Positions 21,476 to 50,363 of a stretch of 64,000 bases of DNA are shown piece by piece. Position numbers and translations under genes: made by a program. The notes beneath the pieces were generated by a model. The model did not search any database and was not told the origin of the DNA. It saw nothing but the letters and a program-made list of their open reading frames with translations. The stretch lies in NCBI GenBank assembly GCA_041905645.1, contig JAYRKR010000001.1, forward strand, positions 23,311 to 87,310. Reading direction: 5' to 3'. The DNA is from Luteimonas sp. GTDB taxonomy: Bacteria > Pseudomonadota > Gammaproteobacteria > Xanthomonadales > Xanthomonadaceae. The first letter of the stretch is position 1; every line of letters starts with the position of its first letter.

Positions 21476-21531
21476 GGCAGGAGGACCGGGGCGGCGTAAG
21501 CTCTGCCATGACGACCGCCCGGAGCCATCCC

Positions 21532-23134: not shown

Positions 23135-23148
23135 TTGATCTGAATCAA
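23135..23148 (-). promoter_or_regulatory. Consensus FNR box TTGATCTGAATCAA
   Basis: Perfect TTGAT-N4-ATCAA, with its centre 73 nt upstream of the USP ATG (23068). CGTAAT lies 22 nt downstream on the gene strand. Confidence 0.65.
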
Positions 23149-23314
23149 GATATCCCCCATATCGCCGCTGGAATCGCGGGCTTTCGGGCTGACCGGCATG
23201 CCGGAGGACTGGCGTGCCCGCCCACCATGCTTCCCTGCATGTATATAGTCCAGAGACAGCACCTGACGGCAGGTGCCTCGTTGCCTTCGCTCCTGATCTC
23301 TTCACGGTGCCCCG

Positions 23315-24706: not shown

Positions 24707-24752
24707 GCGGCGCGCGGGTGATCCGCCGCCGCGCCGGAGCCTGCTCCACGAT

Positions 24753-25672: not shown

Positions 25673-25688
25673 CTGGAATTCTCCTTGG

Positions 25689-28892: not shown

Positions 28893-28932
28893 GACAACTC
28901 CTTCAGGAAGGGTCGTGTTCATTGGCGGCGGC

Positions 28933-30057: not shown

Positions 30058-30060
30058 CGC

Positions 30061-31251: not shown

Positions 31252-33038
31252 GCCGCCGCCTTGGCGTTTGCGCGCGCCTCGTCTTCGAGATCGGCCGACT
31301 CGACCAGATGGATGAAGGCGTCTTCCATCGTCGGATCGGGATGCTTGTCGCTGCGCGAATCGCGCTTGAGCGCGTCGGGCGTGTCGAGGGCGATCAGTTT
31401 CGCGCGATACATCATCGCCACCCGGTCGCAGTACTCGGCCTCGTCCATGAAATGGGTGGTGACCATCACCGTCACGCCCTTGCGGGCCAGGCCGTTGATG
31501 TGGGTCCAGAACTCGCGCCGGGTGATCGGATCGACGCCGGAGGTCGGCTCGTCGAGGAACAGCACCGGCGGGCGGTGCATCAGCGAACAAGCCAGCGCCA
31601 GGCGCTGCTTGTAGCCCAGCGGCAGCGAGTCCGGTGAGGCGGCGAGGTATTGCTTCAGGTCGAAGGTCTCGATCATCTCGTCGATGCGCTCGCGCTTGAC
31701 GGCGCCCTCCAGCCCGTAGACGCCGGCGGAGAATTCGAGGTTCTGCCGTACCGTCAGCAAGCCGTACAGGGAGAACTTTTGCGCCATGTAGCCAAGTCGG
31801 CTCTTGGCTGCTCCCGTGGCGTGGCGCAGGTCGTGCCCGACGACGTGGGCCTCGCCTTCGGTGGGCTTCAACAGCCCGCACAGCATCTTGAAGGTCGTCG
31901 ACTTGCCGGCGCCGTTGGGGCCAAGCAGGCCGAAGATCTCGCCCTTGCCGACTTCGAAGCTCACGCTGTCGGTCGCGGTGAAATCGCCGAAGCGTTTGGT
32001 CAGATTCTTGCAGGACACCGCGATGTCCGATTCGAGCTCGACCGGGCCGATGCGCGCGGCCAGCGCGGACGTGCCCCCGGGGCCGCCGCCCAGTAGATCG
32101 ATGAAGGCGTCCTCGAAGCGCGGCTGCACCGGCTCGAGTCTTGCGCCTACCTCGTCGGCCAGCGCATCGATCTCTTCGCATCCGGCATCGGCGCGCAGCA
32201 CCACGCGCACGGCGTCGCCCTGGATCACGCCGTCGCCGACGCTGCGCAGGTCCAGTACCCGGGACAACACGGCGCGGCGCTCGTTGCTGACGCCCGTCAG
32301 CCGGAAGCTGCGCTGCTTGATGCGATCGGTGAGCTCCTGCGGCGGGCCGTCGAACTCGAGCTTGCCTTCGTTGAGCAGCAGCACGCTCTCGCAGCGCTCG
32401 GCCTCGTCGAGGTAGGCCGTCGACCAGACCACGGCCATGCCGTCGTCAGTAAGCTCCTGCACCATGCGCCACAGATCCTGGCGGCTGACCGGATCGACGC
32501 CGACGCTGGGTTCGTCCAGCAGCAGCACTTCGGGCTTGGCCATCAGCGCGCACGCCAGGCCGAGCTTCTGCTTCATGCCGCCGGACAGCTTGCCGGCAAG
32601 GCGTTTGGTGAACGGACCGAGCCGGGTGAATTCAAGCAGGCTTCCGAAGGTATCGCCATGCCGATCCGCGTCCATGCCGCGCAGCTGCGCGTACAGGCGC
32701 ATGTTCTCCATCACCGACAGGTCCTCGTAGAGGCCGAAGCGCTGGGGCATGTAGCCGCTGACGATGTGGATGGCGTCGTTGTCGTCGACCACGTCGAAGC
32801 CGGCCAGCGCGACGCTGCCGCCATCGGGCACCAGCAGGCCGGTCATGATCCGCATCAAAGTGGTCTTGCCGGCACCGTCCGGGCCTACCAGGCCGGTGAG
32901 GCGGCCGTAGCGGACCTCGGCGCTGAGGCCGCGCAGGGCCTGGACCTCGCCGAAGCGCTTGACGAGGTTGTCGATGACGACCGCGGGGGCGTCCCTGCCG
33001 CGCGCGCGCGATGGATCGTTGGAGGTGTGCGCATTCAT
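31248..33038 (-). CDS. Duplicated-domain ABC transporter ATP-binding protein (YbhF-like)
   Basis: Two Walker A sites (GPDGAGKTT, GPNGAGKST) and two LSGGMKQ/YKQRL signature regions. 596 aa. Confidence 0.9.
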   Translation of the reverse strand: MNAHTSNDPSRARGRDAPAVVIDNLVKRFGEVQALRGLSAEVRYGRLTGLVGPDGAGKTTLMRIMTGLLVPDGGSVALAGFDVVDDNDAIHIVSGYMPQRFGLYEDLSVMENMRLYAQLRGMDADRHGDTFGSLLEFTRLGPFTKRLAGKLSGGMKQKLGLACALMAKPEVLLLDEPSVGVDPVSRQDLWRMVQELTDDGMAVVWSTAYLDEAERCESVLLLNEGKLEFDGPPQELTDRIKQRSFRLTGVSNERRAVLSRVLDLRSVGDGVIQGDAVRVVLRADAGCEEIDALADEVGARLEPVQPRFEDAFIDLLGGGPGGTSALAARIGPVELESDIAVSCKNLTKRFGDFTATDSVSFEVGKGEIFGLLGPNGAGKSTTFKMLCGLLKPTEGEAHVVGHDLRHATGAAKSRLGYMAQKFSLYGLLTVRQNLEFSAGVYGLEGAVKRERIDEMIETFDLKQYLAASPDSLPLGYKQRLALACSLMHRPPVLFLDEPTSGVDPITRREFWTHINGLARKGVTVMVTTHFMDEAEYCDRVAMMYRAKLIALDTPDALKRDSRSDKHPDPTMEDAFIHLVESADLEDEARANAKAAA

Positions 33039-34072
33039 CTCAGCGGCCTTGCGCGCTTGTCGACGGTCGGGGCAACATCGACATCGACCGTCACCGGCAT
33101 GCCCTGGCGCAGGCCCTGATCGGCATCGGCAACCACCACGCGCAGCCGGTAGACCAGATCGGTGCGCAAGTCGGTGGTCTCCACCGTTTTCGGGGTGAAC
33201 TCCGCGCGCGGCGAGATGAAGCCGATCTGGCCGCGATAGACCTTGTCGGAGGAGTCGGTGTGCACGCGCACCTTCGCGCCCGGCGCGATGCGGCCCAGGT
33301 CCGGTTCGCTGACATACGCGCGCACATACACCGGATCGCGCAGGCTCAGGCTGTACACGGTGGTGCTGCTCGCCACCATGGAGCCCGGTTCGCGAATCCG
33401 CGCGATCACGGTGGCATTGCCGGGCGCCACGAGCCTGGTGTCGGCCAGCGCGGTGCGCGCCTGCGCCAGCGCGGCGGCCGCCGCGGCCACCCGCGCCTGG
33501 CCGGCGGCGATGTCTTCGCTTCGAAAGCCATCCCGGGCCAGCGACAGGGCCGACCTTGCCGAGGCCAAGCTGGCCGCCGCCTGGTCGCGCGCGGCACGCG
33601 CGGCGTCGACGGTGCGCTGGCTGCTGGCGCCCGATTCGAGCAGTACATTCTGGCGCCTGAAATTGCGCTCGGCTTCGTCAAAGCCCGCCTGCGCCCGGCG
33701 CACGGTCTCCTGCGCCTGCGCGATTTCCTGCGGACGATTGCCGCTGCGCAGCTTGTCCAGTCCGGCCTGCGCCGCTTGCAGCTCGGCCTGGGCCGCGGCC
33801 AGCTTCTCGCGATAAGGCCCGGCGTCGAGTCGCGCCATGACATCGCCGGCGGCGACGGTGTCGCCCTCGTCGAAGGCCATGCTCGCCACGCGGCCGGGCT
33901 GGCGGAATGACAGTTCGACCTCGCGGATGTCAACGTTGCCGTACAGGCGCAGAACGCCATCATCGCCGCCGTCGCGCAGCAGCCACCACAGCAGCAGGCC
34001 GGCGATGGCCGCTGCGGCGACGGCAATCAGTATCCAGCGGGTCTTCCCGTTGGGGAGGCTTGGAATCTTCAT
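33035..34072 (-). CDS. HlyD-family membrane fusion protein (YbhG-like)
   Basis: N-terminal TM helix, a coiled-coil AQAELQAAQA region, and a lipoyl-like fold. 345 aa. The stop overlaps the ATPase start. Confidence 0.85.
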   Translation of the reverse strand: MKIPSLPNGKTRWILIAVAAAAIAGLLLWWLLRDGGDDGVLRLYGNVDIREVELSFRQPGRVASMAFDEGDTVAAGDVMARLDAGPYREKLAAAQAELQAAQAGLDKLRSGNRPQEIAQAQETVRRAQAGFDEAERNFRRQNVLLESGASSQRTVDAARAARDQAAASLASARSALSLARDGFRSEDIAAGQARVAAAAAALAQARTALADTRLVAPGNATVIARIREPGSMVASSTTVYSLSLRDPVYVRAYVSEPDLGRIAPGAKVRVHTDSSDKVYRGQIGFISPRAEFTPKTVETTDLRTDLVYRLRVVVADADQGLRQGMPVTVDVDVAPTVDKRARPLR

Positions 34073-34201: not shown

Positions 34202-34666
34202 TCATGGTTGTCCATCGAAATGTTCCTGGAAAGGTTTACGGAATTGCTGATGGCAGGCCAGGCAGGTTCCCTGCAGAGTCGCAAATTTCGAGATCACCGC
34301 CTTGCCATCGCTGCGAACGGCAGCCTCACCCAACGCACTCGCTGCCAAGTGAGTCTGCTTGTCGTACTGCTTGAAGCTGCCCGCATTGCTGCCGACGAAT
34401 GCCAAGATGCGCATCCGTTCGCCCATCGGCGGCTGCGGATGATTGGCGATCCGCGGCGCGGTCTTGGCGACCAGCACCCAGTCTTCACGGGCAATGCCGT
34501 CGGTGATGGCCTGCATGTCCTTGCCGAGGTCCTGCATGATCTTGCGCAACGCCAGCGGCTTGGCCTTGTCCGCGTCCGCGGCTCGGGCCAGCGGATAGGC
34601 CCCTGCCAGCAGCGCGCCGGCGACCGCGGTCGCCAAACATGCCTTGAACAGTTGATGACGTTGCAT
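34202..34666 (-). CDS. Class II cytochrome c (cytochrome c'/c-556 type)
   Basis: 154 aa with a signal peptide, a four-helix-bundle-like sequence, and a single heme site CLACH near the C-terminus. Confidence 0.75.
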   Translation of the reverse strand: MQRHQLFKACLATAVAGALLAGAYPLARAADADKAKPLALRKIMQDLGKDMQAITDGIAREDWVLVAKTAPRIANHPQPPMGERMRILAFVGSNAGSFKQYDKQTHLAASALGEAAVRSDGKAVISKFATLQGTCLACHQQFRKPFQEHFDGQP

Positions 34667-34737: not shown

Positions 34738-35946
34738 CTAGAATTCGATGCTCACGGCGATGGAGCCGTAAGCCTGGTTGTCGTCCTGCTCCTCGAACTC
34801 GCGCGTGCGGTAGACGTGCATCACGGCCAGTCTCACGCCATGCTTCGCCACGATGGCCTGGGCGCTGAACCCGATCGCCGCCTGCGCGACCCAGGGCCGG
34901 CGGGTCACGCCGGGGCCTGAACGGAACAGGTTGCCGTCGAGCGAAAAGTCGTAACCGACGGCCTTGGCTTCCACGATCGCGAACAGGTGCGCGCCGGGAC
35001 GCGGCCGACCGGCGGACGCCACCGAAGCGCCGCGGTCGGCATGCAGCGAGGTCGCCGACGGCGGACGGTTCTCGGCGCCCGGCCGGAGCGGATAGCTGCC
35101 GAAATCGTTGGGCAGGTTCCAACCGACGCGGCCCTCGATGCCCGCGGTGGCGGACGTCTCGATGTTGCCGAGCCGCAGCCCCAGCATGCGAATCGAATCG
35201 GCGGAAAACCCCGGAACGACCGCCCCGGAGCCGCGGAAAGGGCGGAACTTGCGGTCCACGGCCAGCTGGAAGGCCGGCTCGTTCTTCAACTGATTGTCCC
35301 AGCCCAGGAACCGGTCTTCGCCGATCGCATCGTGGATCAGGTTCTGGGACTGCTCGGCCAGCGACCAGGGGCCGATCACGCCCAGGGTGATCTCGCGCGT
35401 ATCGAGCATTTCACGATTCGATCCAGGTTGGTGCCGGCGCCGGTTCCACGCCAGGCCCGTGTACAGCAATCCCGCATAGGGCCGGTCATCGGCGATCAGG
35501 TCGGTCCGGCTGTAGTCTTCGGGCGTGTAAATGGACTGGCCGAAGCGGACCACCACGTTCTGCGTGCCCGGAACATCGTCGGCATCGCTCCAGAATCCCG
35601 GATTGACCAGTTCGATGAGTCGCGCATGCAGCCGGATCGGCGCGGGCAGGCATACGGGCCGCAGTTCGCCGGACATGTCGTGCGACACCAGGGTCAACGC
35701 CACGCCGTTGGTGTAGTTTTGGTCGGTACCGGTGAACAGATCGTTTTCCAGCCGTGCGGTGCCGCCACGCAATCGGGGCGTCTGTTCCCGCGTGCAGTCT
35801 CCCGCGCCGACCGCGTCGCCGGCCGCTTGCGCCTGCGCGGGCGAGAGCAGCAGAGCGCCTATCGCCAGCGCCAACGCAGGTCGCCCCGCCAGGCCAGGCC
35901 GGGCAGACGGGTTCGCCGCGAACGGACCGGGCGCGCGCATGCTCAT
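34738..35946 (-). CDS. Lipid A deacylase LpxR-family outer-membrane protein (DUF2219)
   Basis: Signal peptide. LENDLFTGTDQNYTNGVALTL and DDRPYAGLLY motifs. The start overlaps the LOG stop (ATGA). Confidence 0.75.
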   Translation of the reverse strand: MSMRAPGPFAANPSARPGLAGRPALALAIGALLLSPAQAQAAGDAVGAGDCTREQTPRLRGGTARLENDLFTGTDQNYTNGVALTLVSHDMSGELRPVCLPAPIRLHARLIELVNPGFWSDADDVPGTQNVVVRFGQSIYTPEDYSRTDLIADDRPYAGLLYTGLAWNRRRHQPGSNREMLDTREITLGVIGPWSLAEQSQNLIHDAIGEDRFLGWDNQLKNEPAFQLAVDRKFRPFRGSGAVVPGFSADSIRMLGLRLGNIETSATAGIEGRVGWNLPNDFGSYPLRPGAENRPPSATSLHADRGASVASAGRPRPGAHLFAIVEAKAVGYDFSLDGNLFRSGPGVTRRPWVAQAAIGFSAQAIVAKHGVRLAVMHVYRTREFEEQDDNQAYGSIAVSIEF

Positions 35947-36818
35947 ACGGACACGGCTCCTGCAACGTCCGGCGGCCTGCCGTCATAGAATTCTTCCAGC
36001 ACCGCCACGATGTCTTCGGCGAGGTCCACGCACGTGACCAGCTGCACGTCTTGCGGCGCGATGAAGCCTTCTTCCACGAGATAGTCGAAGTCCACGGCGC
36101 GGCGCCAGAACTCGCTGCCGACCAACACGACGGGGATGCGCGCCATCTTGCCGGTCTGCACCAGGGTCAACACCTCGAACAGCTCGTCGAGCGTGCCGAA
36201 GCCGCCGGGGAAGGCGACCAGCGCCCGCGCGCGCAGCAGGAAATGCATCTTCCGAAGGGCGAAATAGCGGAAGCGGAACGCAAGTTCGGGACTGATGAAA
36301 GGATTGGGCGCCTGCTCGTGCGGCAGCGTGATGTTGAGCCCGATCGAGCGCGCGCCGGCTTCGTACGCACCGAGGTTGGCCGCTTCCATGATGCCGGGAC
36401 CGCCGCCGGTTACGACAACGAAGTCGCGCCGCCCTTCGCGCTGGAAGCGGGACGAAATTATGTGCGAGAAGCGGCGCGCCTGTTCGTAGTCTCGCGCATG
36501 CGCGAGCCGGCGTTTGGCCAGTGCGAGCTCCGCGACAGCTCCCGGACCGCGCGGCGTCTCCATGGCACGGCAGCGGGCCTGTGTCAGCTGCGTCTGCGCC
36601 TGCTCCGGCGACGGGGTACGCGCGCTGCCGAACACCACCACTGTGGAGCGGATGCCGTGCGCGCGCAATTCATGTTCGGCCTTGAGCATCTCCAGCTGCA
36701 GGCGCAGCGGACGCAGGTCCTCGCCGGAGAGAAACTCGACATCCTCGCTCGCAAGTCGATACGCCGGCCCGCGCATGATGGCTTGCTGCAGTTCCTGTCG
36801 GCGCCCGTTATCGATCAT
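35943..36818 (-). CDS. LOG / TIGR00730-family Rossmann-fold nucleotide-binding protein
   Basis: VVTGGGPGIMEAAN and AFPGGFGTLDELFE (PGGxGTxxE) motifs. 291 aa. The start overlaps the beta-CASP stop (ATGA). Confidence 0.85.
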   Translation of the reverse strand: MIDNGRRQELQQAIMRGPAYRLASEDVEFLSGEDLRPLRLQLEMLKAEHELRAHGIRSTVVVFGSARTPSPEQAQTQLTQARCRAMETPRGPGAVAELALAKRRLAHARDYEQARRFSHIISSRFQREGRRDFVVVTGGGPGIMEAANLGAYEAGARSIGLNITLPHEQAPNPFISPELAFRFRYFALRKMHFLLRARALVAFPGGFGTLDELFEVLTLVQTGKMARIPVVLVGSEFWRRAVDFDYLVEEGFIAPQDVQLVTCVDLAEDIVAVLEEFYDGRPPDVAGAVSV

Positions 36819-38248
36819 GCCGAGGCGCTCCTGCCGGCGCCGTTCCATCGCACGCGCTGGCCCGGCTCCGGCACGGCCACCCGCCAGCCGCGATCGACGC
36901 GCAGCCGCTCGGCGAACGCCAGCGCCGATCCGGCCTCGCCGTGCACCACGAAGGTCTGCTGCGGCGGACGTTTGAAGCCCGCCGTCCAGGCGAGCAAGGC
37001 GGGCAGGTCGGCGTGCGCGGACAGCCCGCCCGAAGCGTGGATCGCGGCGCGCACGGGAATGTCGTCGCCGAAGATACGCACGCGCTTGGCGCCGTCGAGA
37101 AGCCTGCGACCCAAGGTGCCCTGGGCCTGGAAACCGGTCATCAGCACGCTGCACTCGCGCCGTCCCAGGTTGTGCCGCAAGTGATGTTTGATGCGGCCGG
37201 CATCACACATACCGCTGGCCGAGATGATGAAGGCACCCGAGCGCACCCGGTTGAGCTGCATCGACTCCTCCACGCTCTCCACGAACCGCAGGTAGGGGAT
37301 GTCGCGGCCGACAGCGTGCCAGTCCTTCAGCCGACGCGCCGCCTGGTCGAATAGTTCCAGGTGCTGCATGGTGATCTGCGACGCCCTGCTGGCCATCGGA
37401 GAGTCGACGAAGATCTTCAGGCCGCGCAGCCGGCCTTCGCAGGTCAGGCGGTGGAGGTGATAGATGACTTCTTGGGTGCGGCCCACGGCGAACGCCGGTG
37501 CGATCACGTTGCCGCCCTGCTCGTGCAGGGTACGCTCGACCACCTGGATGAGGTCGGCCTGCGTCGCAGCCAGATCCTTGTGGGTGCGGTCGCCGTAGGT
37601 CGACTCGATCACCAGGATGTCGGCATCCTCGATGAGCGTTGGATCGCGCAGGATCGGCCTGCCGGGCTGGCCCAGATCACCGCTGAACACGAGCTTGGTC
37701 GTCCGCCCGGCCTCGGCTACCCAGACTTCGAGCAAGGCCGATCCGAGGATGTGCCCGGCATCGCGGAAACGGCAGCGCACGTCCGAGTGCGGCCGGAGCT
37801 CCTGGTCATAGGCAGCGGCCTGTACCTGCCGCAGACAGTCCTTCGCGTCCTGCACGGTGTACAGCGGCGTCCCGGTCGCCGACTTGTCGCGCGCCTTTTT
37901 TTTTCTGACCCGGCGCTGCGCACGCGCGGCGTTGGTTTCCTGGATATGGCCGCTGTCGGGCAGCATCACCTGCAGCAGGTCCGCGGTCGCGGCGGTGGCG
38001 TGGATCGGGCCCCGGAATCCCGCGTTCGTCAGCTTCGGCAGCAGACCGCTGTGATCAATGTGGGCGTGCGTCAGAAGCACGAAATCGATCGTTCGTGGAT
38101 CGAACGCGAATGGTGCGCGATTGCGTGCCGGAGCTTCCCGCCCGCCCTGGATCATGCCGCAGTCCACCAGGAAGCGGACAGCATCGGTCTCGACCAGAAA
38201 GCATGAACCGGTGACTTCGCGCGCTGCACCGAGGAAGCTGATGTTCAT
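36815..38248 (-). CDS. MBL-fold beta-CASP hydrolase, copy 2
   Basis: MNISFLGAAREVTGSCFLVE...LVDCGMIQGG...LLTHAHIDHSGLLPKL...SAHAD...VVHGE. 477 aa. The start overlaps the upstream membrane-protein stop (ATGA). Confidence 0.85.
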   Translation of the reverse strand: MNISFLGAAREVTGSCFLVETDAVRFLVDCGMIQGGREAPARNRAPFAFDPRTIDFVLLTHAHIDHSGLLPKLTNAGFRGPIHATAATADLLQVMLPDSGHIQETNAARAQRRVRKKKARDKSATGTPLYTVQDAKDCLRQVQAAAYDQELRPHSDVRCRFRDAGHILGSALLEVWVAEAGRTTKLVFSGDLGQPGRPILRDPTLIEDADILVIESTYGDRTHKDLAATQADLIQVVERTLHEQGGNVIAPAFAVGRTQEVIYHLHRLTCEGRLRGLKIFVDSPMASRASQITMQHLELFDQAARRLKDWHAVGRDIPYLRFVESVEESMQLNRVRSGAFIISASGMCDAGRIKHHLRHNLGRRECSVLMTGFQAQGTLGRRLLDGAKRVRIFGDDIPVRAAIHASGGLSAHADLPALLAWTAGFKRPPQQTFVVHGEAGSALAFAERLRVDRGWRVAVPEPGQRVRWNGAGRSASA

Positions 38249-38691
38249 CGACGCCGCCTCGCATCGGAATCCATTGTTCGCGCGTTGCATACATGCCGCT
38301 CCCGGAGCCGCCAGGCACCGATGGCCGCGATCGCAATCCACACCGCACTGCGCAGGGTCATGGCGATGAGCGTGCGTTGTTCGTAGGCGCCACCAGTGCC
38401 TACATGCACGGCAAAAGCCGTGAATGCAGCCAGCGTCCCCGCGGCGATGGCGACGGCCATCCACACGGCCCAGCGCTGCTGCAACCAGAGCCCGGCGCCT
38501 GCAAGGACGTAAGCGAAACCGGCGAGAAAATTGAACCAGAGCACGAACGGAACATAGTTTCCGGCCGCGGCACGCGCCGCCCCGTCATGAAACAGGACTG
38601 CGCCGCCTTCCTTGATGGTCAGTACGCCAAAACCCACGGCGACCAGGGAAATCGCCCATACCCAGAAATCACGATGCGTGCGAGTTTTCAT
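38245..38691 (-). CDS. Hypothetical integral membrane protein (about 4 TM)
   Basis: 148 aa with hydrophobic segments. AAGGA SD. Lies 23 nt downstream of the EncFtn-like gene. No family recognised. Confidence 0.6.
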   Translation of the reverse strand: MKTRTHRDFWVWAISLVAVGFGVLTIKEGGAVLFHDGAARAAAGNYVPFVLWFNFLAGFAYVLAGAGLWLQQRWAVWMAVAIAAGTLAAFTAFAVHVGTGGAYEQRTLIAMTLRSAVWIAIAAIGAWRLRERHVCNARTMDSDARRRR

Positions 38692-38714: not shown

Positions 38715-39002
38715 TCAGTCATGCGAGATCGGTTTGTCTGTGAACAGGTAATCCTTCAGCTGCCGCGAAAACGTCGGATCCCGGCGCCGGATCCATTCGA
38801 GCAGCATGGCGGCGTGCTCCTTCTCCTCGTCGCGGTTATGCGCGAGGATGGCCTTCAGCGATTCGTCGGCGCAGGCGTCGCGTCGCTGGTTGTACCAGTC
38901 GACCGCCTCCAGCTCTTCCATCAGCGAGACGATCGCGCGATGCATGTCGCGGGTCTCGGTCGAAAGGTCGTCGACGGGCTCGTGGTAGCCAATACTGGAC
39001 AT
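38715..39002 (-). CDS. Encapsulated-ferritin-like (EncFtn family) protein lacking a C-terminal targeting peptide
   Basis: HEPVDDLSTETRDMHRAIVSLMEELEAVDWYNQRRDACADESLKAILAHNRDEEKEHAAMLLEWIRRRD...YLFT closely mirrors the Rhodospirillum rubrum EncFtn core as I recall it. The protein ends right after the core. Confidence 0.75.
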   Translation of the reverse strand: MSSIGYHEPVDDLSTETRDMHRAIVSLMEELEAVDWYNQRRDACADESLKAILAHNRDEEKEHAAMLLEWIRRRDPTFSRQLKDYLFTDKPISHD

Positions 39003-39091
39003 CTGCTTGCTCCTTCGTTCGAGAAAAGTGGAAAACTTGCGATTGGACAACGCGCATCGCGGCGCCGACTTCGAAAAAAGCGGCGATCCGG

Positions 39092-39706
39092 TCAGGCGTC
39101 ACGGCGCGCTTCGATGCCGCGGCGATAAATGTCGAAGACCCGTGCTGCATCGCTGTGCATGCGCTTGACGTCGCCGGCCAGCAGCGACTGCATGACCAGT
39201 CCCTGGATCGTGCCGATGAAAAGAATCACGGCGGCGTCTCTATCGAGCTCGGCGGACAGTTCGCCGCGCGCCTTGCCCGCCTCCATCAGCCGAAGCAGGC
39301 GCTGGCCGTAGCGCTCGATCAAGGTCTGGGCCATGCGTTTGGCGGCGGTTGGTTCGGCCCGCTGCAGCTCGCCGAACATCATCCGCGGCACGCCTGGGTG
39401 TTCGGCCACGAACTCGACGTGGGTCATGAACATCGCCCGCAGTGCCGCCAGCGGCGAGTCGACGCCCTCGGCGGCACGATCGACCCGGGCCAGCAGGCGC
39501 TCGGCCACCCACTCCATGACCGCCTGCCAGATCGCGTCCTTGCTCGGAAAATGGCGGAACAGCGCGCCCTGCGTCAGATGCATGTGCTCGGCGATGGCTG
39601 CCGTGGTGATGTCGTTCGGATTCCGGGTGGCGGCCAGCTCGACCACCGCCTCCACGGTCACCGCGCGTCGCTGCTCGGCCGGCAGGTTCTTGGGACGAAC
39701 AGTCAT
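39092..39706 (-). CDS. TetR/AcrR-family transcriptional regulator
   Basis: The N-terminal HTH ITTAAIAEHMHLTQGALFRHFPSKDAIW is typical of TetR. 204 aa. Confidence 0.9.
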   Translation of the reverse strand: MTVRPKNLPAEQRRAVTVEAVVELAATRNPNDITTAAIAEHMHLTQGALFRHFPSKDAIWQAVMEWVAERLLARVDRAAEGVDSPLAALRAMFMTHVEFVAEHPGVPRMMFGELQRAEPTAAKRMAQTLIERYGQRLLRLMEAGKARGELSAELDRDAAVILFIGTIQGLVMQSLLAGDVKRMHSDAARVFDIYRRGIEARRDA

Positions 39707-39765: not shown

Positions 39766-39923
39766 GGTCCGCTGCTCCTGTGTCGCCAATGAGCCTGCCG
39801 AGCAGACCTAAGCCTGGGCAAAGCTTGCCGCCGCATCCTGTTGCGATGAAGCTGCACAGACAAGCCGATGCGCGCGATTCGGCCGGGCTTTCCCGACCGG
39901 ACGACCATCTGGAGATCCAAGGT

Positions 39924-40589
39924 ATGCGTCTGCTGATCGTCGAGGATTCGCCCACGCTGGCCGACGCACTGAAGGCCAGCCTGTCGCGCGAGGGTTACAG
40001 CTGCGACCATGCCGCAGATGGCGTCGACGCGGCCGCTTTTCTGAACCTGCACGATTACGATCTGGTGGTGCTGGACTGGATGCTGCCGCGCCGCGAGGGC
40101 ATCGACGTGCTGCGCGAGCTGCGCCGCAAGGGTGGCCGTGCACGTGTGCTGATGCTGTCAGCGCGCGACCAAGTCGGCGACCGCGTGGCCGCGCTGGACG
40201 CCGGTGCCGACGACTACATCGTCAAGCCATTTGCCTTGAACGAGCTGCTCGCGCGGCTGCGCGCGCTGGTACGCAGGCCGCGGGAATCGGGCGACGCCCA
40301 ACTGCGCTATGGTGAACTCGGTATCGACCTGCACGCGCGACGCGCGCGCTGGCGGGGGCAGGACCTGATGCTGACGCCAAAGGAATACGCGCTGCTGGAA
40401 TTGCTGATGCGCGAGCGGGGGCGGGTGTTGTCGCGGCCGCAGATCTTCGAACGCCTCTACGACAGCGCCAGCGAGGCTTCGGACAAGGTGGTCGAGGTGA
40501 TCGTGAGCACGCTGCGCACCAAGCTGGCCAACGCCGGCGCGCCGGACCTGATCGATACCCGGCGCGGATTCGGCTATGTCCTGGACTGA
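39924..40589 (+). CDS. OmpR-family response regulator
   Basis: MRLLIVEDS...DLVVLDWMLP receiver domain plus a winged-helix C-terminus (RGFGYVL). 221 aa. Confidence 0.9.
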   Translation: MRLLIVEDSPTLADALKASLSREGYSCDHAADGVDAAAFLNLHDYDLVVLDWMLPRREGIDVLRELRRKGGRARVLMLSARDQVGDRVAALDAGADDYIVKPFALNELLARLRALVRRPRESGDAQLRYGELGIDLHARRARWRGQDLMLTPKEYALLELLMRERGRVLSRPQIFERLYDSASEASDKVVEVIVSTLRTKLANAGAPDLIDTRRGFGYVLD

Positions 40590-41973
40590 GCGGCCGACAT
40601 CGCCGCCGGAACGCGGCTGGTCCCTGCAGCGGCGGCTGATGTGGCGGCTGGCGCTGGCCATCGGCCTGCTGCTGGGTGGGCTGTTCGTGGTGTTCGACGT
40701 CATGGTGGATCGGGCGATGTATGCGCACCTCGACCAGTTCCTGGCGGCGCGTGCGCAGGCCTTCGCAGGACAGATCGCCGGACACGATCCGGAGCAGTTG
40801 CGCAAGCTGCTGCCCGCCTACGATCTGGCCGGCCATGCCGAGTTCTTCGCCCTGTTCGATGCCGACGGCAGGCTGCTGCTGGCCTCGGTCAACAGCGCGA
40901 AGCGCACGCTGTCGCTGCCGACAGCGGTCGGATCACCGCATTTTTACGATACGCAACTGCCCGACGGCCATCGCGGACGCGCCGTGGCCCTGCGTCTGCA
41001 GCAAAATCGAACCCGCGGCTGGCGGCTGGTGTTGGCGACCGAGCGCGAGAGCTGGGACCGCACCGAACGGACGCTGCACGGCGTGCTGCTCGGCGGCATC
41101 GTGCTGGCCATCGTGCTGGCCGTCCTGCTTTGCGTGTGGCTGTTGCGACAGGCCTTCTCGGGCATGCGTGCCGAAGGCGAGCGGCTGAGCGGGCTGCACG
41201 GCGGTGAGGATGCCTCGCTCGCCACCGAACATCTGCCGCGCGAACTGCGGCCTTACGCCGTGGCGGTGCGCGATGCGCTGCAGCGGCTGATGAACGCCGC
41301 CGAGCGCGAACGCCGCCTCTCGCGCGACGTCGCCCACGAAATGCGCACGCCGCTGGCCGAGATCCGCGCCAGCGCCGAGCACGCGCTCGACGCCGACGAT
41401 CCCCCCGCGCTGCGCACCGGACTGCACGCCGCGCTTGCCGCCAACGCGCGCATGGAGCGCGGGATCCAGGCCTTGCTGGCGCTGGCGCGCTTCGAATCCG
41501 GGCAGGTCACGCCCGCGCCCGACCCTCTGGACCTGGTGTCGCTGCTGCGCCAGCAGGTGCGCGGGCTGGCACAGGCCGAGGGCTTCGATGCCGGCCGGCG
41601 CTTCGTCATGGACCTGCCGCCTGCGGTCTGGATCCACAGCGATGTCGGCATGCTTGAGCGCATCCTCACCAACTTGCTGCACAACGCGCACGAATACGGC
41701 AGCGCAGAGGCGCCGGTCCGGGTGTGGATCGAAACGCAGGATGGTGCGCACACGCTGTGCATCCGCAACGACGCGCCCGGCCTCGACGCGGACGATGTCG
41801 TCCGTTTCGGCGAGCGCTACTGGCGCGGTCGCGGCGAGGACGCCGATGCCGGCCACGCCGGCCTCGGCCTGGCGCTGGCCACGGCCATGGCCGAGGCGCT
41901 GGGGCTGAGACTCGGCTTCGCGCTGGAGCGCGACGCGGTGGTGGCGCGGCTGGGGCCGTTCGCGGCGCTTTGA
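40576..41973 (+). CDS. Sensor histidine kinase (two TM, HisKA + HATPase_c)
   Basis: H-box SRDVAHEMRTPLAEI. N/G boxes (LLHNAHEYG, GLGLALA). Overlaps the regulator gene by 14 nt. Confidence 0.9.
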   Translation: MSWTERPTSPPERGWSLQRRLMWRLALAIGLLLGGLFVVFDVMVDRAMYAHLDQFLAARAQAFAGQIAGHDPEQLRKLLPAYDLAGHAEFFALFDADGRLLLASVNSAKRTLSLPTAVGSPHFYDTQLPDGHRGRAVALRLQQNRTRGWRLVLATERESWDRTERTLHGVLLGGIVLAIVLAVLLCVWLLRQAFSGMRAEGERLSGLHGGEDASLATEHLPRELRPYAVAVRDALQRLMNAAERERRLSRDVAHEMRTPLAEIRASAEHALDADDPPALRTGLHAALAANARMERGIQALLALARFESGQVTPAPDPLDLVSLLRQQVRGLAQAEGFDAGRRFVMDLPPAVWIHSDVGMLERILTNLLHNAHEYGSAEAPVRVWIETQDGAHTLCIRNDAPGLDADDVVRFGERYWRGRGEDADAGHAGLGLALATAMAEALGLRLGFALERDAVVARLGPFAAL

Positions 41974-42108
41974 TGTCCGCGGCGAGATCCGATCAAAGCG
42001 CTTATTGAGACTTTCTGAATCAAGTGACAAGTTCAGAACAGCTCCGCCTGCTTCCAGAACGCCGTCACCAACCTCGGTCGGCGCTGCATCGAGCACAACC
42101 GGCGCGGT

Positions 42109-43014
42109 TCATGCTTTCGCTCGCAGACGGTTCACCAACAGATCGTCCCGCAGAATTTCGTCCTTGAGCGCGATGAGTTCCTCAACATCCCAGTTGGCGC
42201 TCAGATACCGGCCTCTGGCCCAGTCTGCCTGGCCGGAACACAGCCACACGGCGAAGCACGCCGCCAAATGCGGATCGTCGACAAGATATTCGTGCATGTG
42301 ATCGGGCATGGCGCGTCCAAGCTCCGTCGCGACGCCGCCGGGGTGGATCGCAAAGCACTTGATGCCGTCTTCCCCGTGATCGTTCTGCACGAATTCGCAC
42401 AGGCGGTTGATGGCGTGTTTCGAGGTCTGATAGTCAGAGGCTCCCGGCATGACCAGTTGCGCGCCGATGGAGGACAGCAGGAGGAGATGACCGCCGCTGC
42501 GGCCTTCGACTGCCCGCTTTCGCGCGCTCTCGATCAGGCGGGGCAGGGTGAAGCGGATCACGTGATAGGCGCCCTGCACGTTCACCTGCCAGTTTCGCCA
42601 CCATCCTTCGGGGTCGCTTTCGCCGATCTTCACCCAGCGACCGAGGTAGCCGGCGTTCGCATCGGCCACATCGATGCTGCCGAACCGCGCCACGCAATCC
42701 GCGACGGCGGCCTCGACGTCCGTTGCGCGAGTGACATCGCAAACCGAATAGGCGCACTGCGTGTCCGGGTGGGCCGCCTTGACCAGGCTCTGCGTCTCCT
42801 TCAGCGCGTCCTCTGACCGAGCGGTCAGATAGACGGCCCCCGCGCCGGCTTCGGCGAAGGCAACGGCGGTGGCCTGCCCGATCCCGCGGGACGCCCCGGC
42901 GATGAAGATGACTTTGCCCGATGCGCTGCCCTTGAGCGCCGCGCTCGGATCGATTGCGTCGTAGCGGTCGTGGTGGACGGTCAGGTCGAGGAGCTGGGTT
43001 TGAATGGATGACAT
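42109..43014 (-). CDS. SDR-family oxidoreductase
   Basis: IAGASRGIGQA (GxxxGxG) and YQTSKHAI (YxxxK) motifs. 301 aa. Confidence 0.85.
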   Translation of the reverse strand: MSSIQTQLLDLTVHHDRYDAIDPSAALKGSASGKVIFIAGASRGIGQATAVAFAEAGAGAVYLTARSEDALKETQSLVKAAHPDTQCAYSVCDVTRATDVEAAVADCVARFGSIDVADANAGYLGRWVKIGESDPEGWWRNWQVNVQGAYHVIRFTLPRLIESARKRAVEGRSGGHLLLLSSIGAQLVMPGASDYQTSKHAINRLCEFVQNDHGEDGIKCFAIHPGGVATELGRAMPDHMHEYLVDDPHLAACFAVWLCSGQADWARGRYLSANWDVEELIALKDEILRDDLLVNRLRAKA

Positions 43015-43169
43015 TGCGATGCTCCCTGGTTGTTGGACGCAGAAATACGCGCGATGCCCGTCTTTTGCCTGCCACATCCTGCTAAAAAGCAGCCTATTCC
43101 TCCAGGCGAGTCCATTTCCCGCTGCGCCGGGTTTCCGCGTCTGATAGGGTCGAGGCAAAGGGAGTGCCT

Positions 43170-44072
43170 ATGAACCTTTCGCATCTCATCGACCTGTCCA
43201 CCCATTATGATGTTGAAAATAAGGGGAATACCTGCAAGCTGCCGTGTCTGTCCGTCTATCGCAGGCACGCGGAAAGTGATATCGAGGCCACGATCTACGA
43301 GCCCGTCATCTGCCTGATCCTGCAAGGCAGCAAAGTGGCAAGTTTCGGCGATCAGCGGGTGGACCTTCGCCCCGGCGATGCGCTGTTGGTCAGCCACGAC
43401 CTGCCTGTCGTGTCCCGGATCACCAAGGCGAGCGCGCGGACCCCTTATATCGCAGTGATCCTGTCGCTGGATCTCGGGCTTGTCCGCAGCCTTTGCGGTC
43501 TGGTGGTCGACGCGACCGCATCCGACGCCAGGGCAGGCCCGCTGTCAGCCGGACTTGCCGACCCTGCCTGGCTTGCACCACTGACCCGTTATTTCGAGAT
43601 GATGGACACCCCGCTGGACGCAAAGGTGCTTGGTCCTGCCACCTTGCGCGAAATCCACTACCGCCTGCTGATCTCTCCGATCGGAGGAATGCTGCGCCGT
43701 CTCCTATACGAAGACAGTCACGCCAGCCGGGTGGCAAAGGCCATCCAGACAGTCCGCGCCGAGCTCAGATCTCCGCTCAGCGTGCCTGAGCTTGCAAGAA
43801 CGGTCGGGATGAGCACGTCGTCCTTTCACCAGCACTTCAAGTCGATCACGGGCACGACGCCGCTGCAGTATCAAAAGGACCTGCGGCTGATCAAAGCCCG
43901 AGTCCTGATGGTGGAACAAGGCCGGACAGTGACCGAGGTCGCTTACACGGTGGGCTATGAGAGCCCGACACATTTCAGCCGCGACTACAGCCGCAAATTC
44001 GGCTTGCCCCCGAGCAGAGATGCCCGCCGCACAGTGTCCGCGTCACAAGAAGCGATGTCTGCGACTGCATGA
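43170..44072 (+). CDS. AraC-family transcriptional regulator (AraC_N-type sensing domain)
   Basis: C-terminal HTH_18 (LARTVGMSTSSFHQHFKSITGTTPLQYQKDLRL...GYESPTHFSRDY). ATG with GGAG 6 nt upstream. Divergent from the SDR gene. Confidence 0.9.
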   Translation: MNLSHLIDLSTHYDVENKGNTCKLPCLSVYRRHAESDIEATIYEPVICLILQGSKVASFGDQRVDLRPGDALLVSHDLPVVSRITKASARTPYIAVILSLDLGLVRSLCGLVVDATASDARAGPLSAGLADPAWLAPLTRYFEMMDTPLDAKVLGPATLREIHYRLLISPIGGMLRRLLYEDSHASRVAKAIQTVRAELRSPLSVPELARTVGMSTSSFHQHFKSITGTTPLQYQKDLRLIKARVLMVEQGRTVTEVAYTVGYESPTHFSRDYSRKFGLPPSRDARRTVSASQEAMSATA

Positions 44073-44534
44073 CGACTGCGCTGCGGCTCAAGCCGTCAGG
44101 GCGTATGACAGGCTTCCAGCGACGCGAAACCGGCCTCCTACATGCCAGTGACCATCGCGGCCGATGCGGTCGGCGACCAGCGCCTACGGCTGCGCGTCGC
44201 AGACTGCGATCGCGCCCTTGAACACGACCCGCTTGAGCACGAAGCTGGCCTGCGGCGTGGCGCTCGCTCTCGGCAGTTGCTGCGGGGCTGGCGAACCTGT
44301 ACGTGGCGCGCGCCCGGTTGGCGGGATAGGTGCGTCCAGCGGGCGCCCGGCGGGGCGAAAAAAGCCGCCGGAACCGCCCAACGGGGCTCGATACCGCCTT
44401 GATCGGATAAGCGACGTCGCTCGAACCAGATCAGCCGGTCACGAACATGTCGCGGCGACTTGATCAGCGTTGCCTTAAGGTCCGCGAAAGCTTGGTGAGT
44501 CAGTATCACTGCATCTCCTACCGGTGCATGAAAG

Positions 44535-45671
44535 ATGCCTCTTGCGCGCCTGAAACCCGTCCACTGGATCGCCGTGGCCGTGGCCCTGGTGCTGCTGGTC
44601 CTCGCGGTCTGGTGGCAGCGCCGCCCCGCGCCGCCCGATGCCGGCACCCAAGCCGCTGCGCCGGTCGCCGACGAACAGGGACGCGTGCGCCTGAGCGCCG
44701 AGCAGTTCAAGGCGCTCGGCATCGAGACCGTCGCGGCAAAAGCCGCCGAACGCGTGCCGGTTACCGGCCTGCCCGCCGAGGCGATGCCGCCGCACGCGGC
44801 CAGCACCCAGGTCACGGTGCCGTTCGCAGGCGTGGTGACGCGCGTGCTGGTGGACGAGGGCGAACGCGTCCGCCGCGGCCAGCCGCTGCTGCGCCTGCAG
44901 AGCCGCGATCTGATCGGCATGCAGGGCGATCTGGCCCGTGCCCGCACCGAAGCCGGCGTGGCCGCGCAGCAGGCGCAGCGCGATAGCGTGTTGGCGCAGG
45001 AAGGTATCATCCCCGCCGCACGGCGGGCAGAGAGCGCAGCGCGCGCGGCGACGGCCAGGATCAACCTGGACGAAGCGGGCGCGATGCTCTCGCAGCTGCG
45101 TCGCGTGCGCGGTGGCCTGCCGGGCGAATACGACATTCTCTCGCCGCAGGCCGGCCTGGTCCTGCGGCGCAACGTCACGCCCGGCAAGGCGATCGAGGCG
45201 ATGGCGCCGGCCTTCGTCATCGCCGGGACCGACGCGCTGGACATCCGGTTCAGCGTCCCGATCGCGCTGCGCGCGCAGCTTCGGCCCGGACTGCCCGTGC
45301 TCCTGCCCGGCGGTGCGCAAGGCCGCGTGGTCGCGGTCGGCGCCGATACCGACAGCGCCACCCAGACGCTGCGCGTGCGCGCCAGCGTCGAGTCGCCCGG
45401 CGGGCTGGTCGCAGGACAGCAGACCGAGGTCGCGCTGCAGCTGACTGCGCCGGCCGATGCGGTAGAAGTGCCGGTCGGCGCATTGCTGCCGCACGGCCAG
45501 CGTGAAGTGCTGTACGTGCTGGATGGCGGGACCCTGCGCGGCCTGGTCGTGGAGCGGCTGGGCGGCGATGCGGACATCGCCGTGGTGCGCGGCGATGGAC
45601 TGCGGCCGGGCATGCAGGTCGTGCGCAAGGGCGCCAGCGTGCTCAAGACGCTGGCGCCGCTCGCGGAATAG
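44535..45671 (+). CDS. Heavy-metal-type RND periplasmic adaptor (CzcB/CusB-like MFP)
   Basis: N-terminal TM helix and a barrel-sandwich hybrid region (GERVRRGQPLLRLQS). Sits directly upstream of the CzcA-like gene. Confidence 0.85.
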   Translation: MPLARLKPVHWIAVAVALVLLVLAVWWQRRPAPPDAGTQAAAPVADEQGRVRLSAEQFKALGIETVAAKAAERVPVTGLPAEAMPPHAASTQVTVPFAGVVTRVLVDEGERVRRGQPLLRLQSRDLIGMQGDLARARTEAGVAAQQAQRDSVLAQEGIIPAARRAESAARAATARINLDEAGAMLSQLRRVRGGLPGEYDILSPQAGLVLRRNVTPGKAIEAMAPAFVIAGTDALDIRFSVPIALRAQLRPGLPVLLPGGAQGRVVAVGADTDSATQTLRVRASVESPGGLVAGQQTEVALQLTAPADAVEVPVGALLPHGQREVLYVLDGGTLRGLVVERLGGDADIAVVRGDGLRPGMQVVRKGASVLKTLAPLAE

Positions 45672-45678
45672 CGCCGCC

Positions 45679-48600
45679 GTGCTCGCCCGCCTGATCGAAT
45701 TTTCCCTGCGCCAGCGCCTGCTGGTGCTGCTGATCGCCATCGCGGTCTCGGTCGCCGGTGCGCTGGCCTTCCTGCGGCTGCCGATCGACGCCTTTCCCGA
45801 CATCTCGCCGACCCAGGTGAAGATGATCCTGAAAGCGCCGGGCATGACCCCCGAGGAAGTGGAGTCGCGCGTCATTACCCCGCTGGAGATGGAGCTGCTT
45901 GGCGTGCCGAACGCGGCCATGCTGCGCTCCACCGCCAAGTACGCGATCGCCGACATTACCCTGGATTTCATCGATGGCACCGACATCTACTGGGCGCGAC
46001 AGCAGGTGGCCGAGCGCTTCGCCAACGTCGCGCCTGCGCTGCCGCCCGACGTCAGCGGCGGACTGGCGCCGATCTCCACGCCGCTGTCGGACGTGTACAT
46101 GTTTACCATCGAGGGCGGCGGCCTGAGCCTGCAGGAGCGTCGCAGCCTGCTCGACTGGACCCTGCGCCCGGCCCTGCGCACGATCCCGGGCGTGGCCGAC
46201 GTCAACGTGCTGGGCGGCGAGGCGAAGAGCTTCGTGGTCGTCCCCGATCGCGTCCGCCTCGCCGCCAACGGCCTGCATCTGCGCGACGTGGTGGACGCGC
46301 TGGAGCGCAACAATCGCAACGACGGCGCCGGCCGCCTGCGCACCGGCGAATCGGCGCTGATCGTGCGCGCCGAAGGCGCGCTGCAGACCCCGACCGACAT
46401 CGGCAACGTGGTGGTGAAATCCGGCGTGCAGCCGCTCCGCATCCGCGACATCGCCCAAGTCCGCATCGAGGCATTGACCCGCTACGGCGCGGTCACGCGC
46501 GACGGCGGCGAGGAAGCGGTCCAGGGTATCGTGGTGGCGCTGCGCGGCGCCGACGCCTCGCGGCTGGTCGACAGCGTCGAGGCGCGGTTGCAGGAGATGC
46601 AGGCCGCACTCCCGGCGGGCGTTGCGATCGTGCCGTTCTACAACCGCAGCGCGCTGATCGAGCGCGCGGTCGGTACGGTGAAGAGTGCGCTGATCGAAGC
46701 TACGGTGCTGGTGGTCATCCTGCTGCTGCTGTTCCTGGGCAACCTGCGCGCGGCGATCGTGGTGGCCCTGATCCTGCCGTTCGCGGTGCTGTCAACCTTC
46801 CTGCTGATGCGGCTGGCCGGGCAGAGCGCCAACCTGATGAGCCTGGGCGGCCTGGCCATCGCCATCGGCCTGCTGGTCGATGCGGCCGTGGTGGTGGTGG
46901 AAAACACCGTCACCCGGCTCGATCCGGAGGCGCCCGGCGCCCACCTGCCGCGCCTGCATCGCATCTACGCGGCGACGCGTGAAGTCGCCACGCCGGTCGC
47001 AGCGGGCATGCTCATCATCGCGCTGACCTTCCTGCCGCTGCTCACCCTGCAGGGACTGGAAGGCAAGCTGTTTGCGCCGGTGGCGCTGACGATCGTGTTC
47101 GCGCTGGTGGCATCGCTGGTGGCTTCGCTCACGTTCGTGCCGGTGATGGCCTCCTATCTGATGAAGTCGCACGCGCACAGCGAGCCCTGGCTGATGCGCA
47201 AGATCGACGCCGCCTACCGCCCGCTGCTGGACAAGGCGCTGGCCAGGCCCGCCTACGTCATGGTCGCCAGCGTGCTGGCGCTGGCGCTGGGCGACGTCGC
47301 CTATCTGGGCACCGGCAAGAGCTTCATGCCGACGATGGACGAGGGCGACGTGTTGATCCAGCTGATGAAGTCGCCTTCGATTTCGCTGGAGCGTTCGACC
47401 GAACTCGACCTGGCCGTGGAGCGCGCGATCATGGCCGACATCCCCGAGGTCGAGCACATCGTCTCGCGCGTGGGCTCGGACGAACTCGGCCTCGACCCGA
47501 TGGGCCTGAACGAGACCGACATGTTCCTGCAGCTCGGGCCCAAGGACCAGTGGCGGGTGCGCGACAAGGCTTGGCTGACCGGCGAGCTCCGCACGGTGCT
47601 CGAGCGCTTTCCCGGCATCGAGTACGGCTTCACGCAGCCGATCGAGATGCGCGTCTCGGAGATGCTCACCGGCAGCCGCGGCGATCTTGCGGTCAAGATT
47701 TTTGGCGCCGATCTCGAAACCCTGGGCGGGCTCGCCCAGCGCATCGCCGCGGAACTGAAGGGGATCGAGGGCGCGCAGGACGTGCTGACCCAGACCACCG
47801 AAGGCGTGGACTACCTGACGGTGGACATCGACGCGGTGGCAGCGGGCAGGCAGGGCCTGGCGGTAGCCGACGTGCAGGACGAGCTGCGTGCGCAGCTGGA
47901 AGGCGTCAACGCCGGCCTGGTGATCGAGCCCCACCGCCGCACCCCGATCCTGGTTCGCGGCGGCGATGAGATCCGCCTGTCCGCCGAGCGCTTCTCGCGA
48001 CTGCGAATCAGCCGGCCCGATGGCGGCGAAGTGCCCCTGTCGAGCATCGCCCGCATCGTGCCGGGCAGCGGTCCGGTGAAGGTCGGCCGCGAGCACGGGT
48101 CGCGCTATGCACTGGTACAGGCCAACGTGGACGCACGCGACCTGGTGGGCTTCGTCGAGGAAGCAAAGGCCGCGGTCGCCCGGAACATCGTACTGCCGGC
48201 CGGCTACCGCCTGCAGTGGGGCGGCCAGTTCGAGAACCAGCAGCGTGCGGCGGCGCGGCTGGCCCTGGTTGTGCCGGTGGCGCTGGCGTTGATCTTCGTG
48301 GTGCTGTTTATGACCTTCGGCTCGGTGCGCCAGGCGCTGCTGGTGATTTTCAACATCCCGTTCGCGCTGGTCGGCGGGATGGTCGCGCTGTGGCTTTCGG
48401 GGGAATACCTGTCGGTGCCGGCTTCGGTCGGCTTCATCGCCCTGCTCGGCATCGCGGTCTTGAACGGGCTGGTGCTGGTCACCCGCTTCAACCAGCTGCA
48501 CGACCAAGGCCTGGATATCACCTCTGTGGTGCGCGAAGGCGCGCTGCGGCGCGTGCGCCCGGTGCTGATGACCGCAAACATCGCCGCATTCGGCCTCGTA

Positions 48601-48771: not shown

Positions 48772-49073
48772 GCGAGTGGATCCGCATGAACCTGGTGTTC
48801 CCGCCGCAGCTGGAAACGCCCATCACCGAAGCGTTGAGCGCCGACCCCCGGATGCCTGGCTTCACCCTGCTCAATGCCGAGGGGCACACCAGCGATTTCG
48901 ACGGGGCCTCCGACGCCGAGCGCGTGCGCGGGCGCGTGTCGCGGCGACTGTTGTGGCTGGTGATTCCGGCCGAGATGAAGGACGACGTGCTGCAGCTCAT
49001 GCGCGCGCATGTGGATTCCCGCGACCTGCGCTGGTGGACCGAAGCCGTGCTGGACATCGGGAGGCTGGGATGA
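48768..49073 (+). CDS. DUF3240-family protein
   Basis: 101 aa. MSEWIRMNLVFPPQLETPITEAL... The start overlaps the czcA stop and its stop overlaps the next start. The family assignment is from memory of czc-associated small proteins. Confidence 0.6.
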   Translation: MSEWIRMNLVFPPQLETPITEALSADPRMPGFTLLNAEGHTSDFDGASDAERVRGRVSRRLLWLVIPAEMKDDVLQLMRAHVDSRDLRWWTEAVLDIGRLG

Positions 49074-50305: not shown

Positions 50306-50363
50306 GTCCAGGCGGACGCATGACAGCGTGCCATTCGCGCGCCGTTTGCCGACCGACTGCGGC

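Follow-up and report, generated by a model that had tools for sequence, protein, structure and literature searches.

EncFtn-type proteins oxidise Fe2+, and a shell is needed if the product is to be soluble; shell-less in vitro, they give an insoluble product. In the R. rubrum protein the ferroxidase centre consists of E32, E62, H65 and Y39, with an entry site of E31 and E34 and an exit site of H57, E61 and E64 (He et al. 2016, PMC5012862). The same work gave the name ‘Non-EncFtn’ to a short class devoid of a targeting peptide (He et al. 2016, PMC5012862), since named ‘s-FLP’ with the tail consensus LFTD(E/N)KPIAHE, and whether its members are encapsulated was then left as unclear (Eren et al. 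2024, PMC11202242). The relevant structure is 3K6C, of NE0167 from Nitrosomonas europaea, an entry with 10 chains of a 95-aa protein that has been described as a decamer (Eren et al. 2024, PMC11202242). The initial annotation called a shell-less copy functionally unexplained, and in line with this the full-text literature yielded no functional study of any s-FLP member and only two papers in which the class is mentioned; neither NE0167 nor encapsulin in conjunction with Nitrosomonas or Thiobacillus led to anything of use there. (A Pasteurella paper in which EncFtn is mentioned is about a capsid-like protein of a prophage and has no bearing here.) With a crystal structure since 2009 and a presence in hundreds of species, shell-less EncFtn is a recognised gap, which the survey described below narrows and which the window itself, i.e. 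the whole 64-kb stretch of DNA analysed, leaves standing.

The gene of interest and its ribosome-binding site are as follows.

38715 to 39002 (stop codon included), minus strand: EncFtn-like ferritin gene of the s-FLP / Non-EncFtn type, ATG start, 95 aa, with matches to PF22277, TIGR04535 and 3K6C
39010 to 39016, minus strand: ribosome-binding site GAAGGAG, separated from the EncFtn ATG by 7 nt, read from the sequence

Of the upstream regions of orthologues that were examined, nearly all have an AGGAG-type site at the same position. The product is matched by the Pfam EncFtn-like profile PF22277 at E 1.5e-43 (146.9 bits; cut-off 27), with protein residues 6-89 corresponding to profile positions 2-85 of 85 (84/85). 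Its best match among solved structures is 3K6C (E 1e-44, residues 1-95 of 95), and the alignment to NE0167 is free of gaps with 71 of 95 residues identical (75%), which is nearer than the encapsulated ferritin of R. rubrum (64%). At 95 aa, with no long C-terminus and with a tail, LFTDKPISHD, that compares closely with LFTD(E/N)KPIAHE, the protein is almost certainly a member of the s-FLP / Non-EncFtn class, already described. Its initial depiction as an oddity of this locus accordingly has to be given up: the class is a recognised one (He 2016, Eren 2024), a structure exists in 3K6C, and there are relatives in at least 592 species.

The motifs MEELEAVDWY and RDEEKEHAAM occupy residues 28-37 and 57-66 of the 95-aa protein, and in a gap-free alignment with Rru_A0973 all nine metal-site residues of the R. 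rubrum enzyme are retained. The ferroxidase residues E32, E62, H65 and Y39 have their counterparts in E30, E60, H63 and Y37, those of the entry site (E31, E34) in E29 and E32, and those of the exit site (H57, E61, E64) in H55, E59 and E62. Assignment to the EncFtn type with an intact ferroxidase site, first made from inspection of the letters, is thereby upheld by profile and alignment alike.

The C-terminus requires closer consideration. The stop comes 7 residues after YLFT, and the NCBIfam encapsulin-cargo model TIGR04535 aligns over positions 1-88 of 114 only, so that the linker and targeting-peptide part of the model is without counterpart in the window protein. The score, 134 bits against a cut-off of 125, is a passing one, and annotation pipelines will consequently name the gene ‘encapsulin-associated ferritin-like protein’; Nitrosovibrio orthologues already have this name attached. 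For the short class the label ‘encapsulin-associated’ is probably misleading. The segment YLFTDKPIS aligns with YLFTEGPIT of Rru_A0973, with YLFTERPI of the H. ochraceum protein and with YLFTSGPITSIEG... of the Acetoanaerobium protein that serves as a control below. In targeting-peptide-bearing proteins this YLFT...PI segment comes before a linker of 25-45 residues and the real targeting peptide, and it therefore belongs to the conserved domain. The window protein stops 2-3 residues past this conserved core, and x-H-x alone is specific to the short class. The penultimate histidine (H94 in the window protein) is present in at least 90% of the short-class sequences among the 80 orthologues introduced below, with the last residue varying, and at its position the targeting-peptide-bearing relatives have no histidine (...GPIT in R. 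rubrum). This alignment argues against the short tail being a cryptic targeting peptide. Absence of such a peptide had been noted at the outset, and the point where the cargo model stops, the tail alignment with verified EncFtn sequences and the confinement of targeting-peptide motifs to longer relatives all concur.

The tail is nevertheless what an alternative reading turns on, namely that the protein is cargo of a distally encoded shell and is taken up via LFTDKPI-x-H-x, a possibility that Eren et al. (2024) themselves bring up. The tail is conserved, inclusive of its penultimate histidine. It is listed as a ‘putative, uncharacterised’ targeting peptide, and the 8-aa linker of fusion-FLP proteins illustrates that a short tether can be accommodated sterically (Eren et al. 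2024, PMC11202242). Secondary cargo genes far from the shell gene are known from the literature, and passage of the TIGR04535 cut-off can be counted on the same side. Against this, the tail as far as ‘PI’ has its homologue in the pre-linker segment of targeting-peptide-bearing proteins and is part of the fold, the last 3 residues misfit the targeting-peptide consensus (PMC11202242), and the distal cargos in the literature bear canonical targeting peptides.

The search for shell genes weighs further against uptake as cargo. Pfam analysis of 63 ORFs of the window, which comprise every plausible gene, revealed no Linocin_M18/encapsulin, ferritin, Bfr or Dps domain. With the T. maritima encapsulin sequence (100% identical to 3DKT) as query against all stop-to-stop frames, phmmer --max gave no family-1 encapsulin match anywhere in the 64-kb window, and phmmer gave none at any of 80 orthologue loci, for which flanks of up to 10 kb to either side were taken (~1.3 Mb in all). 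At the related loci the shell search was for family 1 only, with the window itself being covered by Pfam also. In an Acetoanaerobium locus used as positive control, phmmer recovers the shell gene (E 1e-58), which is directly downstream of an EncFtn gene whose product has the targeting-peptide-bearing tail ...GLNIGKMK. The initial report of no encapsulin gene in the window is thus borne out by two methods and a working control, and the idea of a distally encoded shell with a short-tail cargo, with no family-1 shell gene within ~10 kb in the window or at 80 of 80 loci, is rather unlikely.

Whether short forms are a class or an accident of this contig is best judged from their distribution. The orthologue survey was of one genome per GTDB species; at least 592 genomes have a close relative, of which the best 80 were kept. 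Orthologues in these best 80 are 77-86% identical to the window protein and, by record title, derive from Gamma- and Betaproteobacteria, Nitrospirales and metagenome-assembled genomes labelled Acidobacteria, Haliangium and Acidimicrobiia. Exactly 95 aa is the length of 70 of the 80, with conservation of the tail LFTxKPIAH-x. The 95-aa form is also present in the complete genomes of N. europaea ATCC 19718, T. denitrificans ATCC 25259 and Halioglobus sp. Uisw_031 (CP159826). Of 1.84 billion 50%-identity representatives, 676 were matched at E 1e-10. Lengths were compared in 107 of the best 150, those in which the C-terminal part could be aligned to the window protein, and among these 107 the C-terminal lengths are bimodal: 28 stop exactly at the last residue of the window protein, and a long class has 21-46 extra residues ending in targeting peptides of the LGIGSL, LTVGSL or FTIGSL type, motifs that occur nowhere else in the set. 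In a rough neighbour-joining tree of the representatives, short forms are mostly in one half and targeting-peptide forms in the other, with a few exceptions. On such comparisons, short forms constitute a stable class and are not truncations.

For the window protein itself, the shared stop position in 70 of 80 orthologues has the same implication. A 3′-truncated remnant of a cargo gene whose shell gene was lost would account for the lack of both a targeting peptide and a nearby shell gene, but such a remnant is not expected to have orthologues of 77-86% identity that end at the same residue, nor to have the same 95-aa form represented by a crystal structure (3K6C), and the GC3 of the gene, 0.81, is inside the range of the coding ORFs of the window. 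The conserved stop position and length refute the truncated-pseudogene version of this explanation, and the explanation as a whole is hardly credible.

Just as the length is fixed, so the surroundings are not. All-against-all clustering of ORFs within 4 kb on either side, in a count that leaves out the EncFtn gene itself and its shadow frames, disclosed no cluster present in more than 5 of the 80 loci. The 145 immediate neighbours gave 150 Pfam families, none of them in more than 6 members, and neither ferritin nor Linocin_M18 is among the 25 most frequent. A recurrent MBL-fold neighbour was considered and dismissed, since the six such neighbours are heterogeneous and mutually unrelated. In Thiobacillus denitrificans ATCC 25259 the EncFtn gene (CP000116.1, about 2,538,164-2,538,466) comes after a GAF-kinase/NarL-type regulator pair. 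Boxes for Fur, FNR, OxyR-like regulators, PerR and NsrR showed no enrichment over shuffles in the regions upstream of the 80 orthologues, and hence no regulatory tie to iron or oxidative stress was found there. No phage matches were found in the search for phage carriage of the gene; plasmid matches number seven, at 73% identity or less, and in IMG/VR there is one match, at 66%. Across these loci the short EncFtn gene behaves as a self-contained chromosomal single-gene unit. Conservation of ~80% across classes and phyla, together with the penultimate histidine, suggests constraint beyond that on a simple free enzyme, perhaps from a partner.

A case for a more distant shell-less subclass in an iron-related context is provided by plasmid pBbPL7HG1 of Bradyrhizobium betae (NZ_CP044544.1, 239270-239584). 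Its 104-aa EncFtn-like homologue has 41% identity, is without a targeting peptide and is encoded between the divergent iron exporter gene mbfA and a cytochrome b gene.

Carriers named among the matches are often sulfur- or nitrogen-oxidising chemolithotrophs and other respiratory specialists. DUF3501/CCG Fe-S oxidoreductase genes often accompany rubrerythrins, and a few of the orthologues are beside such genes (2 in the Pfam profiling of immediate neighbours, 3-4 in the clustering within 4 kb). These features, and the consideration that a shell-less ferroxidase has nowhere for its product, give some foothold to the proposal that the di-iron site does other chemistry in vivo, be it rubrerythrin-like reduction of peroxide or O2, or the handling or sensing of another metal. 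That proposal is unlikely, given that none of the ferroxidase, entry and exit residues known from the characterised enzymes has been lost and that no conserved reductase partner gene adjoins.

The immediate surroundings in the window are of a different nature, the gene being in a string on the minus strand in the order TetR, EncFtn, membrane protein, beta-CASP, LOG, LpxR, cytochrome c′-like protein and exporter genes.

39092 to 39706, minus strand: TetR-family regulator, 204 aa, head of the gene string, with TetR_N and TetR_C domains
39003 to 39091, minus strand: spacer of 89 nt from the TetR stop to the EncFtn start, read from the sequence
38245 to 38691, minus strand: membrane protein, 148 aa, about four hydrophobic segments (4-TM), no Pfam family, starting 23 nt past the EncFtn stop
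36815 to 38248, minus strand: beta-CASP metallo-beta-lactamase-fold nuclease, 477 aa, with Lactamase_B, Beta-Casp and RMMBL domains, in 4-nt overlap with the membrane-protein stop
35943 to 36818, minus strand: LOG / TIGR00730-family protein, 291 aa, PF03641 and TIGR00730, in 4-nt overlap with the beta-CASP gene
34738 to 35946, minus strand: LpxR outer-membrane lipid A deacylase family protein, 402 aa, PF09982 at E 3.7e-85, in 4-nt overlap with LOG
34202 to 34666, minus strand: cytochrome c′-like protein, 154 aa, PF01322, hydrophobic leader-like segment at the N-terminus, CLACH haem motif at the C-terminus
27411 to 34072, minus strand: exporter genes by Pfam, namely HlyD-type adaptor, double ABC ATPase, two ABC-2 permeases and outer-membrane factor

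(The LOG gene start was set from the gene called in locus L001 and from the window sequence.) The downstream membrane protein, beta-CASP, LOG and LpxR genes are hence as initially named, and beta-CASP, LOG and LpxR make up a translationally coupled string. Scoring of 39003 to 39091 and of the surroundings of the EncFtn gene gave neither a sigma-70-like promoter nor a terminator-like site, and judging from the spacing, EncFtn is probably co-transcribed with the TetR-headed operon in the window.

Co-transcription is one matter and membership of a functional unit another. The membrane-protein family, with 4122 matches, is widespread at 50-79% identity, the best 120 listed being 63-79% identical with the window's own set aside. 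(In a few JGI records its homologues are named ‘DUF2068 family’.) In 80 metagenome loci of the family, TetR is upstream of the membrane-protein homologue in 45, mostly directly adjacent; ABC exporter genes, either HlyD-ABC-ABC2 or MFP-MacB-ABC, adjoin it in ~43, and cytochrome c′ is present in 18, LpxR in 8, and beta-CASP and LOG in 5 each. Sulfuricella denitrificans and Gallionellaceae have the order cytochrome c′-like, TetR, membrane protein, LpxR, in Sulfuricella also with ABC-2 exporter genes nearby. The window LpxR is 69-71% identical to the LpxR beside the membrane-protein homologue in Sulfuricella and Gallionellaceae, and the window cytochrome c′-like protein 54-56% identical to its counterparts there. 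In Thermomonas the order is DUF302, TetR, MFP, MacB, ABC, membrane protein, and the TetR heading its MFP-MacB-ABC-membrane-protein operon is 80% identical to that of the window. A two-component system common to the window and the Gallionellaceae module was entertained and discarded, as the pairs, only 35% and 26% identical, are not orthologous.

EncFtn was encountered at none of the 87 other loci of the membrane-protein family, even at phmmer E <= 1. Reciprocally, the module is absent from 78 of 80 s-FLP loci, with the membrane protein adjoining EncFtn only in the Dokdonella loci L011 and L012. Among the loci compared, an EncFtn slot in the module is confined to the window, L011, L012 and L014, in the last two of which EncFtn directly follows a MacAB-like ABC gene; seven metagenome contigs encode an identical EncFtn protein in the same gene order as the window. 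On these gene orders, TetR, the 4-TM protein, exporter, cytochrome c′-like protein, LpxR, beta-CASP and LOG are a separate conserved module of which EncFtn is not a general component, and its placement there is, by the same comparison, a lineage-specific juxtaposition restricted to a Lysobacterales sublineage. The description of the gene as ‘embedded in this operon’ was therefore an overstatement of the link. What the membrane-protein module does may be of greater interest than EncFtn itself.

These counts bear directly on the suggestion that in the Lysobacterales lineage the protein partners its operon neighbours, e.g. by docking the 4-TM protein and coupling iron oxidation to transport or envelope remodelling. 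The gap to the membrane-protein gene is only 23-26 nt, the order is the same in the window, the seven metagenome contigs and the two Dokdonella metagenome-assembled genomes, EncFtn has the same slot after a TetR/MacAB-like unit in L012 and L014, and the Bradyrhizobium plasmid has its distant shell-less homologue beside mbfA. However, with the membrane-protein family lacking EncFtn in 87 of 87 other loci and EncFtn lacking the membrane protein in 78 of 80 species, the two mostly occur apart and neither family depends on the other; in addition, no neighbour gene has an iron-related annotation. Such a partnership is quite unlikely.

Other features of the window merit record. In the sister-strain contigs L001 and L006 (97-98% DNA identity) the DUF302 gene is joined directly to TetR, as in Thermomonas, and in the window the ~10.6 kb at 39773-50359 between the DUF302 and TetR genes is a strain-variable insertion that contains an OmpR/histidine-kinase pair, SDR, AraC regulator and HlyD-AcrB-OEP efflux system. 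Positions 26-12081, 13748-14170 and 20525-25894 resemble a denitrification/low-oxygen stress island, the window having genes like narG, narH and narJ, a NarK-like MFS transporter, molybdenum-cofactor genes (MoaA, MoaC/MoaB, MoeA, MoaE), and stress-type genes for three universal stress proteins, thioredoxin 2 and OsmC, as well as phosphate acetyltransferase. There are two beta-CASP metallo-beta-lactamase paralogues, at 23315-24706 on the plus strand and 36815-38248 on the minus strand; the score of the latter against the NCBIfam Cas14/type VII CRISPR model, 378 bits with a cut-off of 800, denotes family resemblance only. Apart from EncFtn, a single gene with a clear relation to iron was found in the window, that of a low-affinity iron permease (PF04120, Fet4-like, E 7e-53) at 12452-13045 on the minus strand, 26 kb from EncFtn.

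What, then, might a short EncFtn protein do? By extrapolation from characterised EncFtns and from 3K6C, with its 75% identity, the window protein would assemble as an open ring of ten subunits, with its ferroxidase centres predicted to sit at the dimer interfaces of the ring. The ring would work free in the cytoplasm, oxidising Fe2+ with O2 or H2O2 and so diminishing Fenton chemistry, and the Fe3+ product would go to bacterioferritin, ferritin, Dps or cellular ligands with no dedicated shell. Since EncFtn-type proteins oxidise Fe2+ but cannot alone keep the product soluble, a free ferroxidase combined with other iron sinks is the most economical proposition. The fixed length, high conservation, chromosomal location, lack of a partner gene and lack of a nearby shell argue for an autonomous cytoplasmic role, and the same points argue against deducing function from the local operon. 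Taken whole, the reading of this s-FLP member as a decameric ferroxidase, free in the cytoplasm and serving to detoxify Fe2+, is, with due reservation, the probable one.

A variant goes further, in having a ring that never meets a shell but whose near-invariant surface and conserved C-terminal histidine would dock a non-encapsulin partner, with the Lysobacterales lineage of the window having recruited the gene into a TetR-controlled envelope/efflux operon as an iron-stress safeguard. The partner may be bacterioferritin, to which Fe3+ would be handed, or a membrane component. As an elaboration of the free-ferroxidase reading this is fairly improbable.

Of the known systems, NE0167/3K6C is the one that the window protein most resembles, with the same 95-aa length, metal-site residues and tail pattern (KPIAHE compared with KPISHD) and with no targeting peptide; nothing essential distinguishes the two, though the window gene sits inside a TetR/membrane-protein/exporter operon. 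The encapsulated ferritins Rru_A0973 (5DA5) and Hoch_3836 (5N5F/7OE2) are of the same EncFtn fold family, the former being 64% identical to the window protein over 92 aligned residues with identical ferroxidase, entry and exit residues, but they are 131-140 aa long owing to a disordered linker of 35-45 residues ending in SLGIGSLK, and a shell gene adjoins theirs whereas none is near the window gene. More remote are the archaeal fusion-FLP encapsulins, such as P. furiosus PFC_05175 (5N5E), which share a distant EncFtn domain (E 0.0096) and from which the window protein differs in being a free 95-aa protein. With classical ferritin, bacterioferritin and Dps there is in common a di-iron ferroxidase centre on a ferritin-like helical scaffold; theirs, however, are closed iron-storing cages of 12 or 24 subunits, whereas EncFtn-type proteins form open rings without a cavity.
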